DNA of 24,000 nucleotides from Desulfonatronovibrio magnus. Its GTDB lineage: Bacteria > Desulfobacterota > Desulfovibrionia > Desulfovibrionales > Desulfonatronovibrionaceae. The position numbers and the translations under genes were made by a program. Shown piece after piece: positions 1,945 through 12,641 of this stretch. How positions within the stretch are numbered: the first letter of the stretch is position 1; every line of letters begins with the position of its first letter. The stretch spans positions 456-24,455 of the forward strand of contig NZ_KN882175.1 in the NCBI RefSeq assembly GCF_000934755.1, written 5' to 3'. Below the pieces are notes generated by a model. It did no database searches. It worked only from the letters and a program-made list of their open reading frames with translations, and was not told the DNA's origin.

Positions 1945-2135
1945 AAACAATTAATATCTTATCTTTGTCATTTTGACTACAAAAATTCACCATCAGTTTT
2001 TGCAGTTTGCAACTCATGGTCAAAGTCGATAAAGTAGTGAGCGCCGAAAGCACTTGGCACTCGAAAGTTTGATCCTGAGCCGCCCGAATGCAGCTCTTTT
2101 CACTTTCAATTTCTCCTAAGGATGCGACATTTATC

Positions 2136-3626
2136 ATGAAAAACTACTCTTTAGAATTAATAGTTTTCACATCAGGGGCTGTAGTTATGATCCTGGAACT
2201 GGTTGGGGCCCGAATTATGGCTCCATACTTGGGGACTTCAATTATTGTCTGGACAGGATTGATAGGTATAGTCCTGGCAAGCTTGAGCGTGGGGTATGCC
2301 GTGGGTGGAAAGTTTGCAGACCAGGGCCCTACCATGGGCAGACTGTCCATTATAATACTTTCTTCAGGACTTTTGATTGCCTTCTGTACTATGATTCACA
2401 GGCCTGTACTCTCTTTTCTCCTTGACTCAGGTGCGGGCATTTATATGAATGTGATTCTGGCCACCACAATTTTGTTTGGACCACCAAGTATTGGACTGGG
2501 AATGATCACTCCATATGCTGTGAAAATGAGGATCAAAAGTTTAGAAACATCCGGGTCAGCAGTTGGTCGCATGTATGCACTATCTACTATAGGCAGCATC
2601 ATAGGAACCTTTCTTTCAGGGTTTGTACTTGTGGCCTTTTTTGCCAGTACAAGCATTTTGTTTTTTCTTGCTATGGTCATGGGTCTTCTTTCTTTACTTG
2701 CAGCAATTAAACCTGCTGCCTGGGCCAAGCTTGCTCTCATGCTTGTTGGTGCTCTGGGCATAGCAACTGTTACATCTTACCGCAGCCTGGCTCAGGAACA
2801 GGGCTTCTATGATTATGATTCGCGTTATAGCCGGATACAAATCTTTCAAGGTTATGAACAGGATTCAGGCAGAATGGTAAGGGTTGCAACCACCAGCCCC
2901 AACAGATTTCAATCTGCAATGTATGTTGATGATCCAACCGAGCTTATCCTTGAGTACACCAAATACTTCAAGCTCATTGAGCACTTCAATCCAGATATTC
3001 AAATATCTCTAATGCTTGGTGGCGGAGCCTACTCATTTCCCAAATATTACCTGGCTTCATTGCCCAATGCTGAAATTGATGTTGTTGAGCTTGACCCTCT
3101 CTTCACCAGTCTGGCCAAAAAACACTTTAAATTGAACGAAAACCCAAGAATGCGCACCATTCATATGGACGCCAGGTCTTTTCTCAACACCGCTCAAGAA
3201 AAGTACGACGCAATCATATCCGACGTTTTCAGCAGCTCGTACTACATCCCGTTTCAAATGACCACCATTGAGGCGGTAAAACATATGTATCGGCTTCTAA
3301 CACCTGGATCAGTGGTCCTTATGAACATAATATCACCTGTTGAAGGTCCCAACAGCCGTTTCTTTCAGGCCCAATACCAGACCTTTGCCGAAATCTTTCC
3401 GCAGACAATGGCTTTTCTTGTGGACAGCCATAAAAATCCTGAAAGTAACCAGAATATTATTATTGCAGCGTTTAAATCTTCTGATCCGGTAAGTCTGGAA
3501 AGTACTGATCCAGAAATTGACAGGATGCTTCAGAATGTATGGGCTGGAGATTTTGAACATTCACTTCCTGTTTTAACGGATAACTTTGCTCCTGTTGACA
3601 GGTATCTTATTCCGGTTATTAACTGA
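2136..3626 (+). CDS. fused polytopic membrane domain / spermidine-synthase-like (class I methyltransferase fold) protein
   Basis: ORF track gives 2088..3626. I prefer the internal ATG at 2136 (MKNYSLELIVF...), which has taaggat about 13 nt upstream; 2088-2135 lies in the divergent promoter region. The N-terminal ~220 aa are hydrophobic helices (IVFTSGAVVMILELVGARIMAPYLG, IVWTGLIGIVLASLSVGYAVGG, ILFFLAMVMGLLSLLAAI). The C-terminal half has a SAM-fold-like pattern (LMLGGGAYSFP, IDVVELDP, YDAIISDVF). Confidence 0.8.
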   Translation: MKNYSLELIVFTSGAVVMILELVGARIMAPYLGTSIIVWTGLIGIVLASLSVGYAVGGKFADQGPTMGRLSIIILSSGLLIAFCTMIHRPVLSFLLDSGAGIYMNVILATTILFGPPSIGLGMITPYAVKMRIKSLETSGSAVGRMYALSTIGSIIGTFLSGFVLVAFFASTSILFFLAMVMGLLSLLAAIKPAAWAKLALMLVGALGIATVTSYRSLAQEQGFYDYDSRYSRIQIFQGYEQDSGRMVRVATTSPNRFQSAMYVDDPTELILEYTKYFKLIEHFNPDIQISLMLGGGAYSFPKYYLASLPNAEIDVVELDPLFTSLAKKHFKLNENPRMRTIHMDARSFLNTAQEKYDAIISDVFSSSYYIPFQMTTIEAVKHMYRLLTPGSVVLMNIISPVEGPNSRFFQAQYQTFAEIFPQTMAFLVDSHKNPESNQNIIIAAFKSSDPVSLESTDPEIDRMLQNVWAGDFEHSLPVLTDNFAPVDRYLIPVIN

Positions 3627-6586: not shown

Positions 6587-7654
6587 ATGACGACCCTGCG
6601 GCTATTTTCCAGCAGGTTCGATTCCGTGCCGGCAGCCACATCCTGGTATTTGGCGGACCTTGGCGAGGCACGGGGCAAACAGGAATTATTTTCCCGCCAA
6701 TCGCCCCAGCGTCTCAAGGCTCTGCGGGAGCACGCCCTCGTTGAAAGCGCGGTGTCGTCCAACCGGATTGAAGGCGTTGAAGTCGATCAATCTCGTATTA
6801 CCACCATCGTTTTCGGCCAGCCTCTTCTGAAGCACCGTGATGAGGAAGAAGTCCGGGGATACAGACAGGCCTTGACCTGGATTCATGATCAAGGCTTAAA
6901 AATCCCTGTATCCGAAGAAACGATTCTTCAGTTCCACCGTATGACACGCGGTGAGATCTGGGATGCCGGAAAATACAAGGAGAAAGACGGCGATATTATC
7001 GAAAAGTATCAGGATGGCCGGTCACGGGTCCGCTTCAGAACTGTTTCAGCCAAGGTTACACCGAGTTACATGAAGGAGATGATCGGATTGTACGAAGATG
7101 CCATCGGTGATCGTATAGTTCCAGGGTTTGTCCTTCTGGCTGCCTTCAACCTTGATTTTTTGTGCATCAACCCCTTTCGTGACGGCAACGGTCGTGTTTC
7201 AAGGCTGCTCTTGCTTCTGCAGTGTTACCATTTGGGTTTAGAGGTAGGACGGTATATCAGTCTGGAGCGCCTCATCGAACAGAACAAGGAACGATATTAC
7301 GAGACCCTGGAGCAAAGTTCCCAGGGCTGGCATGAAGGCAAACACGACCCCTGGCCATACATCAATTTCATTCTTTCCATCATCAGGACGGCCTGTCTTG
7401 AATTTGAGCAGCGTATCGGGCGAATGCAGAGTCCCAAGGGCGAAAAAACAAGACTCGTATTACACGCTATCAACAACATATCTGGTTCTTTCAGTGTGGC
7501 CGAACTCCAAAACAAGTGCCCCAACGTTAGCGTGGATATGATCCGGCGCATTCTCAAAAATCTTCGGGCCAGGGATCAGGTTAAATGTCTAGGCCGCGGC
7601 CAGAACGCCCGGTGGGAAAAAACCGCCAAGTGGGAATTGGGTAATGTCCAATGA
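6587..7654 (+). CDS. Fic-family protein (Fic_N with inhibitory-helix motif, Fic core, C-terminal winged-helix) with a degenerate active-site motif NPFRDGNGR
   Basis: 355-aa ORF with GAGGG 9-13 nt upstream of the ATG. The N-terminal motif SSNRIEGV fits the (S/T)xxxE(G/N) inhibitory helix. The core reads FLCINPFRDGNGRVSRLLLLLQCY, against canonical HPFx(D/E)GNGRxxR. The C-terminal FSVAELQNKCPNVSVDMIRRILKNLRARDQVKCLGRGQNARWEK looks like a wHTH. Confidence 0.9.
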   Translation: MTTLRLFSSRFDSVPAATSWYLADLGEARGKQELFSRQSPQRLKALREHALVESAVSSNRIEGVEVDQSRITTIVFGQPLLKHRDEEEVRGYRQALTWIHDQGLKIPVSEETILQFHRMTRGEIWDAGKYKEKDGDIIEKYQDGRSRVRFRTVSAKVTPSYMKEMIGLYEDAIGDRIVPGFVLLAAFNLDFLCINPFRDGNGRVSRLLLLLQCYHLGLEVGRYISLERLIEQNKERYYETLEQSSQGWHEGKHDPWPYINFILSIIRTACLEFEQRIGRMQSPKGEKTRLVLHAINNISGSFSVAELQNKCPNVSVDMIRRILKNLRARDQVKCLGRGQNARWEKTAKWELGNVQ

Positions 7655-7681
7655 ATTGGGTAACGCATTGGGTAATTTTAG

Positions 7682-7938
7682 GGATTTTCTGTTGCCAACC
7701 TCAAGAATTTCAGACAGTTCTTCCTTACGTTTCCAGATTTGGGAAAAGGCTACACGTTGCGTAGCGAATTGGGTTGGTCCCATTACCGGCTCATAATGCG
7801 GGTTCCTGATCCTGAATCGACAGAGAACAGTTCCTTGCTGCCAAATATCTGCGAGTCCTGCCCAGTGAGGATGAGCTGGCACGGGAACTGGATGCCAGAC
7901 ATGTGTTTAAGGTCAATAGGGAAGGAGGAAAAGAATGA
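7682..7938 (+). pseudogene. DUF1016/YhcG-type PD-(D/E)xK nuclease remnant: N- and C-terminal pieces joined, central ~250 aa missing, frameshifted
   Basis: Frame 2 reads GFSVANLKNFRQFFLTFPDLGKGYTLRSELGWSHYRLIMRVPDPE, the conserved N-terminal signature of YhcG/DUF1016 proteins. After ~7815 homology continues in frame 1 as EQFLAAKYLRVLPSEDELARELDARHVFKVNREGGKE*, the typical ..KY.L.LPseeEL..EL C-terminus. The nuclease core between them is absent. Confidence 0.6.
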
Positions 7939-7989
7939 GAGCAGAGCCGGGCTAACCTGCATTCCTGCCGCGACCCTGGCTGCATAGAT

Positions 7990-8102
7990 ATGGGCCTGGC
8001 TTTTTTTCTTGTAATCCACTGAAGAAAATGGTTACTTGACCTGAATTTGATTCAAAAGGGCTTTTTTAAAGGCTTTTCTGATAATATCCAGGGAACAGGG
8101 TG
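7990..8102 (+). repeat. ~113-bp imperfect direct repeat, copy 2 (right of fic and the DUF1016 remnant)
   Basis: See 6397..6510. Same orientation; the copies start 1593 bp apart. Confidence 0.8.
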
Positions 8103-8347
8103 TGGTCATCAGTGCTCCAATGACAACCTGAAGACTCTTACAGTGCCCATTTTGAGGGTAAAACAGGCGTTCTAAGGCAGAATATCAGCCTGTTTTTGGA
8201 ACGTATCATTTGAAAATTCAGCAGATTGGCTTGGTCCGACCCCAAACAACTGTTCCGCCAGATAATCTATAAGAAATCAATGGCCAGGAGATAAACATCC
8301 AACATGGTTTGCATCTCTTGAATTAACAACCAGCACCAATCAAAACA

Positions 8348-9571
8348 ATGGAATACACCACCAAAAACGAAGTTAATGATCTTTCCATCTTTCAAGAAGA
8401 CCAGAGGATTTATGATCAAAGAGCATGCGGCCGATTAAGAGGCAGTAGCACAAGTTTCCGAATTATCGACGCATTCTCCGGGGCTGGAGGTATGACTTTG
8501 GGATTTTCCGGGTTTCTCAACCACGCCTTTAAGCCGGTTTGGGCCAACGACTTCGATAAATACTGCGTTGAGACATACAATAAAAATTTCGGAGGACACT
8601 GTATTCCAGGAGACATTGTCGAGATATTGAAAAATCCCGCCATTACCATACCGGATGCTGACGTGGTAATCGGGGGGCCTCCTTGCCAGGGGTTCAGCCT
8701 GTTGAATAAAAATCGTGATGGCGATCCCAGAAAACAGCTTTGGAGGCCTTTTCTTGAAATTGTCGAACGTTCAGGGGCAAAGGCCTTTGTCATGGAAAAC
8801 GTTCCTCAACTTTTAGGATCATTTGAGCACGGTGAAATTATCGGCATGGCCCAAGCCATGGGCTTCAAGGTCTGGGCCGAGGTACTATGCGCTGCAGACT
8901 ATGGGGTCCCTCAGACCCGCCGCCGGGCGTTCATCATAGGATGCAGGATAATCGATCCCAAAGTGCTGTTTCCGCCACGAAAAACCCATTACAATCCCAA
9001 TGGAAAAAACAGTAAGCATTCTTCGTCGTTATTAAAACTGAGCGATTATCTGCATAAGCCAAAGAAATGGAAGAGTGTCAGGGATGCAATAGGAGATTTG
9101 CCCCCGCCTGAAGGAACTGAAATAAGAAATGTTCCACCACCGTTGGATCTGCATTTTGGACGTAATCCTACTGAACTCAGCCGGAAAAGATACCGGGCAA
9201 TCCCGGATGAGGGAATGAACCGCTTCGATCTGCAAAAAGTCGCCCCTGATCTCACACCCAAGTGCTGGCTCAGAAAAAAATCAGGTGGAACGGATTTATT
9301 TGGAAGGCTTTGGTGGGACAAACCTGCGTTCACCATCCGTACCGAGTTTTTTAAACCCGAAAAGGGCAGATATCTTCATCCTCAGCAACACAGACCCATA
9401 ACCCACCGTGAAGCAGCCAGACTGCAGACCTTTCCGGATGAGTTCGTCCTCAAGGGAACCAAGATTGAAATTGCCAAGCAAATCGGCAATGCGGTTCCTC
9501 CTGTGATGGCGGCCCGTGTAGCGGACGTGGTTTACACTCTTTTGACCTTCAAGGGTTACCACAATGGTTGA
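8348..9571 (+). CDS. dcm: DNA (cytosine-5)-methyltransferase
   Basis: All hallmark m5C-MTase motifs are in order: I DAFSGAGGMTLGF, IV GGPPCQGFS, VI FVMENVPQL, VIII QTRRRAFIIG, then a variable TRD, IX-like RPITHREAARLQTFPDEF, and X IGNAVPPVMA. Confidence 0.95.
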   Translation: MEYTTKNEVNDLSIFQEDQRIYDQRACGRLRGSSTSFRIIDAFSGAGGMTLGFSGFLNHAFKPVWANDFDKYCVETYNKNFGGHCIPGDIVEILKNPAITIPDADVVIGGPPCQGFSLLNKNRDGDPRKQLWRPFLEIVERSGAKAFVMENVPQLLGSFEHGEIIGMAQAMGFKVWAEVLCAADYGVPQTRRRAFIIGCRIIDPKVLFPPRKTHYNPNGKNSKHSSSLLKLSDYLHKPKKWKSVRDAIGDLPPPEGTEIRNVPPPLDLHFGRNPTELSRKRYRAIPDEGMNRFDLQKVAPDLTPKCWLRKKSGGTDLFGRLWWDKPAFTIRTEFFKPEKGRYLHPQQHRPITHREAARLQTFPDEFVLKGTKIEIAKQIGNAVPPVMAARVADVVYTLLTFKGYHNG

Positions 9572-9977
9572 CTGCTTCAGCGAAGAAAAAAGAAGCTGGG
9601 TCATGAGCCGGGTAAAAGGCTGTAATACCAAACCTGAAATGATAGTGAGGTCCATGGTCTTTCGCATGGGATTCAGGTTTCGCCTCCATCGGAGAGATTT
9701 ACCCGGAACCCCTGACATCGTCCTGCCCAGGCTCAAAAAAATCATATTCGTTCACGGATGTTTCTGGCATGGACATGAAAAGTGCTCCAAGCGTAAACGG
9801 CCGAATGAAAACCAGTCTTTCTGGAACAAGAAGCTCAACGACAATATCAATAGGGACAGGAACAACATTCAGCATTTGAAGGATCTGGGCTGGGACGTAC
9901 TTGTGATTTGGGAATGTGAAACCAGAAATGCACAAAACTTGTCAAAAAAATTAGAGGTTTTTTTAAATGACGGTTGA
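9564..9977 (+). CDS. vsr: very-short-patch repair endonuclease
   Basis: Contains SEEKRSWVMSRVKGCNTKPEMIVRSMVFRMGFRFRLHRRDLPGTPDIVLPRLKKIIFVHGCFWHGH...FWNKKLNDNINRDRNNIQHLKDLGWDVLVIWECE, the Vsr family signature. It overlaps the dcm stop by 8 nt (ATGGTTGA), like the classic dcm-vsr overlap. Confidence 0.93.
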   Translation: MVDCFSEEKRSWVMSRVKGCNTKPEMIVRSMVFRMGFRFRLHRRDLPGTPDIVLPRLKKIIFVHGCFWHGHEKCSKRKRPNENQSFWNKKLNDNINRDRNNIQHLKDLGWDVLVIWECETRNAQNLSKKLEVFLNDG

Positions 9978-10503
9978 TCAGGAAAAAACACTTCAGGAAA
10001 TCGAAAACCTGATTCTCAACTTCAAGGTCGAGCTTAAGAAGGATGACCTTCGATCAAAAGTAACTGCCTTGGTGCCGGTTTTCCATAAACTACGAAAGAT
10101 GGGCCAATCGTTGGTCTCTTCAAAGCACACATCCTCTGCGAGAGAGCGTATTCTTTATTACTTTCGTAAATATCCCAAAGTGGTGATTGCCTGTGATGAA
10201 CTGATGGTTGTCTCCGGAATACAGGATTACCCTCGAAGGATAAGGGAATTGAGGGTTCAGTTCGGTTGGTCCGTTGCTAGCGGTGTGACCATAAAGGAAA
10301 TGCTTCTGGATCAGGAGGTGGAAATTCCTGATGAATACCGGGACATGAAACCAGACGATTATGTACTGCTTGATGAAGACCAGGACAGGGATGCGGCCCA
10401 CCGGTGGAATCTGGCCAATAGCATTCGTAAAGAAAAAGGTTCGATTCGCAGCAAAATTCTCAAATATCTCCGGAAAAATGTGGGCAAACAGGTCACCAAC
10501 TAA
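9967..10503 (+). CDS. N-terminal portion (coiled-coil, first wHTH-like module, start of second module) of the cassette nuclease; ends at an in-frame TAA
   Basis: Overlaps the vsr stop by 11 nt. Contains RERILYYFRKYPKVVIACDELMVVSGIQDYPRRIRELRVQFGWSV. Near its C-terminus it starts a second copy of the same module (RSKILKYLRKNVGKQVTN*). It is in the same reading frame as 10531..10884. Confidence 0.6.
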   Translation: MTVDQEKTLQEIENLILNFKVELKKDDLRSKVTALVPVFHKLRKMGQSLVSSKHTSSARERILYYFRKYPKVVIACDELMVVSGIQDYPRRIRELRVQFGWSVASGVTIKEMLLDQEVEIPDEYRDMKPDDYVLLDEDQDRDAAHRWNLANSIRKEKGSIRSKILKYLRKNVGKQVTN

Positions 10504-10530
10504 GAATTACGATATGTTTCAGGAAACAAA

Positions 10531-10884
10531 ATGGAATGGGCAAGACGGGTCCGCGAGCTCAGGACTGAACTAGGGTGGCCCATAGTCACCAAGTCTACAG
10601 GCCGCCCGGACCTGGCAATAGGTGCCTACACGCTTGAAGCCGACCGTCAAGGTTATGAACACGATAGGAAGATACCAGACAATATTCGCAGGGAAGTGCT
10701 GCGGAGAGATGGATACAAATGCAGTGAGTGCAGCTGGTCACATGAAGAATGGAACCCCTCCGATCCAAGGCACCTCGAATTGCACCACATTCAATATCAT
10801 GCGAAGGGTGGTAAGAATACAAAAGAAAACCTCCAAACTTTTTGTACTGTATGTCATGACAAGATTCATAAGGTTAAGAAGTGA
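10531..10884 (+). CDS. HNH endonuclease (rest of the second wHTH-like module plus a Zn-finger HNH domain)
   Basis: Begins MEWARRVRELRTELGWPIVTK..., followed by YKCSECSWSHEEWNPSDPRHLELHHIQYHAKGGKNTKENLQTFCTVCHDKIH. That is CxxC...HH...N...CxxCH, the beta-beta-alpha-metal HNH signature. AGGA lies 6 nt upstream of the ATG. Confidence 0.8.
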   Translation: MEWARRVRELRTELGWPIVTKSTGRPDLAIGAYTLEADRQGYEHDRKIPDNIRREVLRRDGYKCSECSWSHEEWNPSDPRHLELHHIQYHAKGGKNTKENLQTFCTVCHDKIHKVKK

Positions 10885-10897
10885 TTTTTTTTGTAGC

Positions 10898-11086
10898 CCG
10901 TCTTTCGACAAGGCCAGATACACGGACTGGGACCGCCGTGACGATATCAAGGCCGAACTCAAGGCTGATCTGATCATTCTCCTGGCCGAGCACGGCTATC
11001 CCCCGGTGGACCGGGATGAAGTATATAAGGAAATCTTTGAACAGGCTGAGAATTTCAAGAAGTATCAAACCAGGGTCGGGGCTTGA
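10898..11086 (+). pseudogene. hsdR: 3'-terminal stub of a type I restriction enzyme R subunit
   Basis: The last ~60 codons of track ORF 10622..11086 read FDKARYTDWDRRDDIKAELKADLIILLAEHGYPPVDRDEVYKEIFEQAENFKK. This is the characteristic HsdR C-terminal tail (..L...gYPP......v..v.eQAe). The upstream part of that ORF merely overlaps the HNH gene out of frame. No helicase or nuclease domains are present anywhere in the window. Confidence 0.6.
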
Positions 11087-11195
11087 AAGGTCCCGTGCCA
11101 TAGACCAGGCTAAGCAGATACATTGGAATAAATCTTTTGTTGCAGCGTGAAAAAATATCTTTCCAACCTTTAACAAAACATATATGAGCTAAAGC

Positions 11196-12641
11196 ATGAA
11201 CCTTGAACAAATATTCTATGCACTAATCATTATTGGCATTCTGCTCATTGCAGGAAAAATAATTCGTCGCAAATTCGAAATCTTTCAAAAGCTATTCATA
11301 CCCGCGTCCATCATTGCCGGCTTTATCGGGCTGATTTTAGGCCACCAGGTCCTTGGCAACGGTCTTCAATTGATAATCAAACAAGAACACTGGCTCTGGC
11401 AGGGTCTATTCCCGCAAAGCATTCTTGATGTCTGGTCAGGACTTCCCGGGCTGCTTATAAGCGTGGTTTTTGCTGCCCTGTTTCTCGGCAAAAAAATTCC
11501 TCCAGTAAAAGAAATCTGGCATAAAGCAGGCCCCATGGTGGCTCATGGTCAAACCATGGCCTGGGGACAATATGTAATAGGCATTTCCCTTGCTCTTTTT
11601 CTGCTGACTCCCGTGTGGGGCATCAGCCCCTTATCCGGAGCACTGATAGAAATCAGCTTTGAAGGCGGCCATGGGACTGCTGCAGGCCTTGCCGATACTT
11701 TTAAGGAGCTTGGTTTTGCAGATGGAGCAGATCTGGCTCTGGCGCTGGCAACTGTTGGGGTTGTAATGGGAACTCTTCTTGGCATTTTGCTCATCAACTG
11801 GGGAGTTCGTACTGGCAGGATTAATCCCCCTGACAAAACCAGCAGTCAGGACATGGAAGAACTTGCAGACCATGATGAAAGAGAGACCCAAAATCTTGAT
11901 ATTGATAAATTCAGCGCCATGACCGAGCCTCTTTCCCTGCATCTGGCTTTGGTCGGTGCAGCCATAGGCTTTGGCTGGCTTTTACATCAGGGACTTATGA
12001 TCTTGGAACGAATGGCTTTTGGTGGAAGTGACTTTGAACTTATGCGCCACGTGCCTCTTTTTCCCCTGGCCATGATTGGCGGCGTCCTTATCCAGATCTT
12101 TCTGGATAAAGTACATTACTCAAAATACATTGACCGCAAACTTATAAATCGCATTTCTGGTGCAGCATTAGATATACTTATTGTTTCTGCCCTGGCTACA
12201 CTGTCATTAATGGCCATTGGCGAAAATATCTATCCCTTTTTAATAATTGCAGCTGCAGGAATAGCCTGGAACCTCTTTGGTTTTATCGTGCTTGCCCCGC
12301 TTATGTTTCCGAGAAACTCTTTTGCCATGGGCATGGGTAACTTTGGGCAATGCATGGGAATGACAGTCATAGGACTTCTGCTTATGCGTATTGTTGACCC
12401 TGACAACAAAACAGGTGCCATGGAAAGCTTTGGCTACAAGCAGCTGATGTTTGAGCCGGTTGTAGGAGGAGGCTTGTTCACTGCAGCTTCCCTGCCACTA
12501 ATCTATCAATTCGGCCCTGCACCAATACTCGCTGGAACTTCGGTCTTAGCTCTGGCATGGCTGATATTTGGACTGATTTATTTCGGACCACAAAAAAACA
12601 GCAAAAAAATGCAAAACACAGAGGAAGATGCTGCTCAGTAA
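11196..12641 (+). CDS. sodium/glutamate symporter family (GltS/ESS-like) transporter
   Basis: 481-aa polytopic membrane protein. The N-terminus LLIAGKIIRRKFEIFQKLFIPASIIAGFIGLILG and the central IEISFEGGHGTAAGLADTFKELGF match GltS signatures (compare E. coli GltS ITLSGGHGTGAAW). It is longer than classical GltS (~400 aa). Confidence 0.75.
   Translation: MNLEQIFYALIIIGILLIAGKIIRRKFEIFQKLFIPASIIAGFIGLILGHQVLGNGLQLIIKQEHWLWQGLFPQSILDVWSGLPGLLISVVFAALFLGKKIPPVKEIWHKAGPMVAHGQTMAWGQYVIGISLALFLLTPVWGISPLSGALIEISFEGGHGTAAGLADTFKELGFADGADLALALATVGVVMGTLLGILLINWGVRTGRINPPDKTSSQDMEELADHDERETQNLDIDKFSAMTEPLSLHLALVGAAIGFGWLLHQGLMILERMAFGGSDFELMRHVPLFPLAMIGGVLIQIFLDKVHYSKYIDRKLINRISGAALDILIVSALATLSLMAIGENIYPFLIIAAAGIAWNLFGFIVLAPLMFPRNSFAMGMGNFGQCMGMTVIGLLLMRIVDPDNKTGAMESFGYKQLMFEPVVGGGLFTAASLPLIYQFGPAPILAGTSVLALAWLIFGLIYFGPQKNSKKMQNTEEDAAQ

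Follow-up and report, generated by a model that had tools for sequence, protein, structure and literature searches.

Escherichia coli carries an orphan pair of genes, dcm and vsr, which is usually regarded as related to the EcoRII-type systems. In this pair, the gene of a 5-methylcytosine (m5C) DNA methyltransferase overlaps the gene of Vsr, an endonuclease that repairs the T:G mismatches left by m5C deamination, and no working restriction partner accompanies them. A comparable arrangement is found in a stretch of 24,000 nucleotides from Desulfonatronovibrio magnus (assembly GCF_000934755.1, contig NZ_KN882175.1, positions 456 to 24,455 of the forward strand), hereafter called the window. Unlike the E. 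coli locus, the window retains the restriction gene, an HNH nuclease gene at 9967–10884 that is one base short of intact. Quite probably, this is a cassette with intact dcm and vsr genes whose nuclease was lost by one recent G-to-T nonsense change. The parts of the cassette described below lie on the + strand of the window.

Several described enzymes share parts of this nuclease. EcoRII itself has a PD-(D/E)XK catalytic domain, whereas the window enzyme belongs to the HNH type. Hpy99I pairs with an m5C methylase, and NaeI (Type IIE, GCCGGC; PDB 1ev7) has a CAP-like winged-helix DNA-binding domain and an m5C methylase partner. NaeI thus resembles the window system in combining winged-helix DNA binding with m5C methylation, but its catalytic domain is PD-(D/E)XK, not HNH, and the Foldseek match between the two is weak and not significant (E = 1.3). 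Type IIP HNH enzymes with Cys4 zinc sites are known, such as Hpy99I, KpnI, and PacI (PMC4081073); like the window nuclease, they have a beta-beta-alpha-metal core stabilized by CxxC…CxxC. They differ in giving no sequence match in a PDB profile search, and the window family adds a hairpin and two winged-helix-like modules. Winged-helix–HNH endonucleases of the HhiV4I type are solitary, N6-methyladenine-dependent Type IV enzymes (PMC11037411). They share with the window family the fusion of a winged-helix reader to an HNH cutter, a likeness of layout, whereas the window family has two reader modules and is linked in 78 of 78 loci to an m5C methylase of its own, and usually also to Vsr.

Among profile models, the 219-position PADLOC model PDLC03478 matches only a part of the window nuclease, its second module and HNH domain, and so resembles the short single-module relatives described below; neither this model nor phrog_119 gives an enzyme name or a specificity. 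The PDB profile search matched only the HNH cores of IscB, EcoKMcrA, ZRANB3, and ScoMcrA, and a literature search for systems with HNH, Vsr, and m5C found no paper on the nuclease family. No characterized enzyme with the hairpin, tandem-module, and HNH architecture was found in Pfam, the PDB profile search, or the literature. An earlier note on this DNA, made from the letters and their open reading frames (ORFs), had not recognized the tandem-module HNH architecture as that of a characterized restriction enzyme, and nothing in these searches contradicts it.

The stop codon and the single-chain homologues

The nuclease gene is a 918-nucleotide frame with a single internal stop, TAA at 10501–10503, which divides it into ORFs of 178 amino acids (9967–10503) and 117 amino acids (10531–10884). 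Both start at a 3n+1 position and thus share a frame, and translation confirms that the TAA is their sole separator. This codon is an ordinary stop in the window, where it ends two other large ORFs. The 27 nucleotides behind it translate as ELRYVSGNK, and the next codon is ATG 10531–10533, preceded with a 6-nucleotide spacer by AGGA at 10521–10524, as the note had described. Read through, the frame gives the 305-amino-acid product expected there, with an HNH domain at its C-terminus (PF01844).

The 305-amino-acid read-through was searched against 5.8 billion proteins and gave 3534 matches. The best 120 of them are all single polypeptides of 299–329 amino acids, with 65–89% identity and 96–100% query coverage. 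Furthermore, when one genome per GTDB species was scanned, relatives of the nuclease turned up in at least 193 species' genomes from many phyla; the best 80 species loci, together with six loci from exact protein look-up, make up a set of 86 loci. In the alignment of homologues, the residue at the position of the stop, Glu179, is invariant and lies within an invariant EELRYV motif: Glu is encoded there in all 86 loci (GAA in 48 and GAG in 38), and it is present in all of the 133 motif-bearing proteins among 270 fetched. The closest relative, a metagenome-assembled genome (MAG) of Desulfohalobiaceae (L001), is 89% identical in amino acids and 91% in nucleotides; at this site it has AAT GAA GAA, against AAC TAA GAA in the window. 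The single-chain homologues, the invariant Glu, and the G/T difference from L001 together argue for one broken gene: on this comparison, a single G-to-T transversion at 10501, changing GAA to TAA, explains the split, and the gene is a disrupted or mis-sequenced copy of a common single-chain enzyme without a two-subunit design. Loss of the restriction partner by a nonsense mutation, the one of the note's two readings that assumed a knockout, fits all of this evidence. Its other reading, a 178-amino-acid and a 117-amino-acid subunit, is refuted since neither a gene boundary nor a stop is found at this column in any of the 86 loci, although orthologues split at the same position had been named there as the mark of a real two-subunit system.

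The stop stands at the start of helix 2 in the second of two modules. The 178-amino-acid product therefore retains only the N-terminal hairpin, module 1, and the first helix and first strand of module 2. The putative 117-amino-acid product, which has the HNH domain and, from module 2, helix 3 and the wing, would begin just ahead of the recognition helix. Residues 179–188 (E179–K188), which form helix 2 and include the invariant E179, E180, L181, R182, Y183, and V184, are in neither product. As neither the recognition helix in module 2 nor any part of the HNH domain would be translated, restriction activity is presumably lost; with the uninterrupted nuclease frame missing, the window system would be at best a methylase and a Vsr.

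Architecture of the nuclease and its internal duplication

An AlphaFold2 model was made of P0001, an intact protein 89% identical to the window nuclease; its mean predicted local distance difference test score (pLDDT) is 75, with 85–93 in the modules. The model begins with a two-helix hairpin at residues 3–49 (9973–10113; helices 3–24 and 28–49), for which a role in dimerization is possible. Two modules follow, at about residues 58–136 and 160–223; module 1 is assigned to residues 57–136 (10135–10374) and module 2, which holds the stop, at residues 159–223 (10441–10635). The C-terminal HNH (beta-beta-alpha-metal) domain with its CxxC…CxxC zinc ligands corresponds to 10720–10872. Pfam HNH (PF01844) matches residues 252–302 with a score of 35 bits (cutoff 21.4), and the invariant residues of this domain are all kept (C252, C255, H273, H274, N284, N288, C293, C296, H297, and H301). 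For the N-terminal portion of about 235 amino acids, no family in Pfam or NCBIfam scores above threshold. The PHROG family phrog_119, named “HNH endonuclease,” matches residues 33–302 (E = 1e-47).

The modules are related to each other. BLASTP aligns them with 39% identity over 54 amino acids (E = 4e-11), and profile–profile comparison with hhalign gives a probability of 98.2% over 52 columns (E = 4e-14). The tandem duplication proposed earlier is thus statistically significant, but its core extends over about 54 amino acids rather than the 100 or so that had been supposed; outside this core, equivalence of the modules, such as that of the wing strands 132–136 and 220–223, derives from the AlphaFold topology only. 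Both alignments place the stop in the column of Asp77 of module 1, again in accordance with the note. In module 1, the models show an alpha1-beta1-alpha2-alpha3-beta2-(insert)-beta3 topology, with helices at 58–68, 76–83, and 88–99 and strands at 102–105 and 132–136; module 1 modelled separately has a pLDDT of 80. The corresponding elements of module 2 are helices 160–170, 178–185, and 190–201 and strands 175–177, 206–208, and 220–223. Foldseek found no significant match in the PDB (the lowest E-value was 0.16 with the whole model and 0.48 with that of module 1), and most of the top, non-significant matches are winged-helix domains (MarR, OmpR/PhoB, Z-alpha, Rok, and Fox) with template modelling (TM) scores of about 0.5. 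From this topology, it is reasonable but not proven that both modules are winged-helix-like.

There are shorter relatives. Proteins of about 200 amino acids have one module plus the HNH domain only, and since this module is module 2, its comparison with the long form suggests that module 2 is probably ancestral and module 1 the duplicate. For example, plasmid pGT2 of Acidithiobacillus ferriphilus (L089, 2037–3600) encodes, right after dcm, a relative of 201 amino acids with a single module, HNH, and the same EWARRVRELRTEEG motif, which by its sequence looks like an ancestral short form of the enzyme. Partial matches akin to this form were also seen in a Priestia plasmid and a Blautia phage.

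The methylase, Vsr, and nuclease as a mobile cassette

The partners of the broken gene are apparently intact. The m5C methyltransferase gene dcm (8348–9571) matches PF00145 with 203.6 bits (E = 6.9e-60) over profile positions 1–321 of 324 and TIGR00675 with 179 bits (cutoff 100.65), and its product is 92% identical to that of L001. The vsr gene (9564–9977), encoding the very-short-patch mismatch endonuclease, covers all of TIGR00632 (positions 1–119 of 119; score 139.3 bits, cutoff 97.85) and also matches PF03852. Both are therefore full length by these profiles, as had been read from the letters. Because vsr overlaps dcm by 8 nucleotides and the nuclease gene by 11 nucleotides, the trio looks like one translationally coupled operon. 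In blastn, nucleotide homology with L001 is confined to a single high-scoring segment pair at 8258–10919 (91.3% identity), and the genes on either side differ; this limitation marks dcm–vsr–HNH as a mobile cassette of 2.66 kb. In the window it has a Fic gene on one side and a glutamate-symporter gene on the other, in ordinary chromosomal surroundings. The upstream Fic/DOC-family gene (6587–7654) is followed by about 600 nucleotides without a convincing ORF (7655–8257), a possible junction left by insertion of the cassette. A promoter and terminator scan of 7600–11300 gave nothing above shuffle background.

The same association is found elsewhere. An orthologous dcm (56–92% identity) adjoins the nuclease gene in every one of the 78 loci, out of the 80 species loci, that include upstream DNA. 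In these loci, vsr is complete in 67, partial in two, and absent in nine, and the complete copies are located between dcm and the nuclease gene; in three Nitrospira-type loci, dcm–vsr is divergently oriented. Copies are also present on plasmids of Pandoraea and Sphingomonas, and cultured carriers include Desulfacinum hydrothermale DSM 13146, Desulfurivibrio dismutans AMeS2, and Pandoraea oxalativorans DSM 23570. Furthermore, natural fusions support a functional link between the parts of the cassette. P0160, a metagenomic representative of 714 amino acids, joins in frame an orthologous m5C methylase to the hairpin, tandem-module, and HNH nuclease, and plasmid pPO70-1 of Pandoraea oxalativorans (NZ_CP011518.2, 75122–76480; L087, 3557–4915) encodes an in-frame Vsr–nuclease fusion of 452 amino acids. 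The latter is annotated merely as “Vsr.” The PADLOC Type II model PDLC03478 (REase_II) matches residues 187–297 with E of about 1e-9, and a PADLOC Type IV model scores 4e-5. The dcm linkage, the fusions, and the PADLOC score support the assignment of the cassette as a Type II restriction-modification system composed of methylase, Vsr, and nuclease, whose biochemical roles are predicted from sequence.

On this basis, 8258–10919 would be a compact and horizontally mobile Type II cassette with overlapping genes for an m5C methyltransferase, Vsr, and a single-chain HNH nuclease of about 305 amino acids. In intact relatives, the nuclease would consist of a helical hairpin, two duplicated winged-helix-like modules for DNA reading, and a zinc-stabilized cutter at the C-terminus. 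The modules may read an unmethylated target and the HNH domain may cleave it, while the methylase would shield the host DNA and Vsr would mend the T:G mismatches produced by deamination of 5-methylcytosine. The G-to-T change at 10501 would then convert Glu179 in helix 2 of module 2 from GAA to TAA, and translation would end at 178 amino acids, so that neither the recognition helix in module 2 nor any of the HNH domain is made and restriction is lost. As dcm and vsr stay intact, an orphan methylase–Vsr pair would be left. As for the target, 610 kb of host loci were surveyed for avoided palindromes; many are mildly depleted (CTAG, GGATCC, GGGCCC, CGATCG, and others) and none stands out. Comparison of the methylase with the solved structures of M.HaeIII, M.HhaI, and DNMT1 matched only catalytic motifs, and the target-recognition region was uninformative.

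Alternative explanations and the significance of the locus

Could the two ORFs nevertheless work together? In such a functional split, the 178-amino-acid product would serve as a DNA-binding subunit and assemble with a reinitiated 117-amino-acid HNH subunit into an active enzyme. The Shine–Dalgarno-like AGGA just ahead of an ATG that lies 27 nucleotides past the stop is what reinitiation would call for, and this ATG was itself created by a lineage-specific change of Thr189 to Met (ACG to ATG). Nevertheless, the position is unsplit in all 86 related loci, the break falls inside module 2 so that six invariant residues of helix 2 are missing from both products, and the AGGA derives from the codon context of the conserved Gly186. 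Thr occupies position 189 in 125 of the 133 homologues, and Met is found in one other intact homologue; an adaptive origin of the start codon was rejected for this reason, and the appearance of the ATG behind the stop is probably a coincidence. An exhaustive HMMER search with the 178-amino-acid product retrieved 165 representative clusters with E-values no higher than 1e-10, and no short protein among them ends at a conserved boundary; the short ones, from metagenomes, have scattered ends, frameshifted tails, or contig ends. A functional split is thus very improbable, and it is also unlikely that the new AGGA–ATG rescues a trimmed HNH fragment. More weight is due to a sequencing or assembly artefact, in which the organism would have GAA at 10501–10503 and an intact 305-amino-acid nuclease, and the TAA would be a base-call error or a minor allele in the consensus. 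One base sets the window apart from every homologue, the catalytic and zinc residues are all kept, and the gene otherwise looks fully constrained. Compared with the closest relative, the nuclease gene has a ratio of nonsynonymous to synonymous substitution rates (dN/dS) of 0.17, and the ratios of dcm and vsr are 0.11 and 0.24. Amino-acid changes polarized with outgroups number 11 in the window lineage and 15 in the sister lineage, that of the closest relative, for the nuclease, 12 and 9 for dcm, and five in each for vsr, so that no relaxed constraint is seen in the window lineage by dN/dS or by these counts (Fisher's test, p = 0.43). Since the gene has no other decay, the stop would either have arisen very recently or be an error of base calling. 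Against an artefact, stop-creating substitution errors are rare in polished assemblies, and nuclease genes of the same family are broken at other positions in four of the 80 species, which makes real inactivation plausible. These copies have a stop near residue 27 (L042, 2094–3002), at the invariant Trp101 (L082, 2863–3777), or at Lys68 (L083, 4001–4891), or a C-terminal frameshift by which the last CxxCH is lost (L073, 4001–4960); as read from the genomes, they would indicate recurrent loss of restriction, or assembly errors in MAGs. Taken together, the stop is probably a real mutation, and an artefact has a smaller though appreciable chance.

A different question is whether the HNH protein belongs to the cassette functionally, or is a modification-dependent (Type IV-like) or repair-associated winged-helix–HNH nuclease that merely travels with dcm–vsr. 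Characterized winged-helix–HNH fusions such as HhiV4I are modification-dependent (PMC11037411), and EcoKMcrA is among the PDB sequence relatives of the HNH core (E = 3.4e-4). Yet the EcoKMcrA and ScoMcrA matches are restricted to that core (profile positions 241–311), and the Type II model of PADLOC scores better than its Type IV model. In addition, a methyl-dependent nuclease that stood beside an active methylase from its own cassette, or was joined to it, would be self-toxic except where the two differ in specificity, and the linkage to an orthologous dcm in 78 of 78 loci and the fusion in P0160 speak against a chance companion. A Type IV-like or repair role is accordingly given very little credence. 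Some points do weigh against a Type II cassette with a freshly inactivated nuclease. The winged-helix assignment draws on model topology and on fold matches that are not significant (E = 0.16 and 0.48), and no family member with an established nuclease activity or recognition sequence was found. Exact look-ups of the window Dcm and of the 178-amino-acid product in public collections found nothing, and a metagenome scan with a 32-nucleotide pattern across the stop, with either allele allowed, gave 0 matches, so no independent copy of the TAA allele was found in the public collections searched. The missing further decay suits an error of base call or consensus at 10501, the less probable of the two, as well as it suits a fresh mutation.

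If the stop is real, the Type II cassette of the window has been caught one base after the loss of restriction, a snapshot of how orphan dcm–vsr pairs like that of E. coli may originate. In annotation, the two ORFs are best joined and marked as a single, disrupted gene of a restriction nuclease, and the strain is to be treated as having a methylase and Vsr without restriction unless GAA is restored by resequencing. Restriction genes are well known to decay, and the window itself adds no more than one further case; the sole part worth pursuing is the uncharacterized tandem-reader architecture of the family. The comparison defines a large and tightly conserved family of dcm–vsr–HNH cassettes. 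It may be, although this is proposed tentatively, that the family represents an uncharacterized class of Type II restriction enzymes with a hairpin, two duplicated winged-helix readers, and HNH, tied to an m5C methylase and in most cases also to a dedicated Vsr. As the N-terminal 235 or so amino acids lie outside Pfam and the solved structures, the family is a reasonable target for enzyme discovery, in which tandem winged-helix modules may provide a new specificity.

Two minor observations concern other genes. At 2088–3626, the window has an ORF of 512 amino acids without a Pfam family at E up to 1e-5. In another locus (L003, 6114–7619), a second restriction-modification system stands directly downstream of the cassette and consists of an XhoI-like nuclease, called as two pieces, and an N6/N4 methylase; this arrangement suggests a defence island with another possibly split restriction gene.

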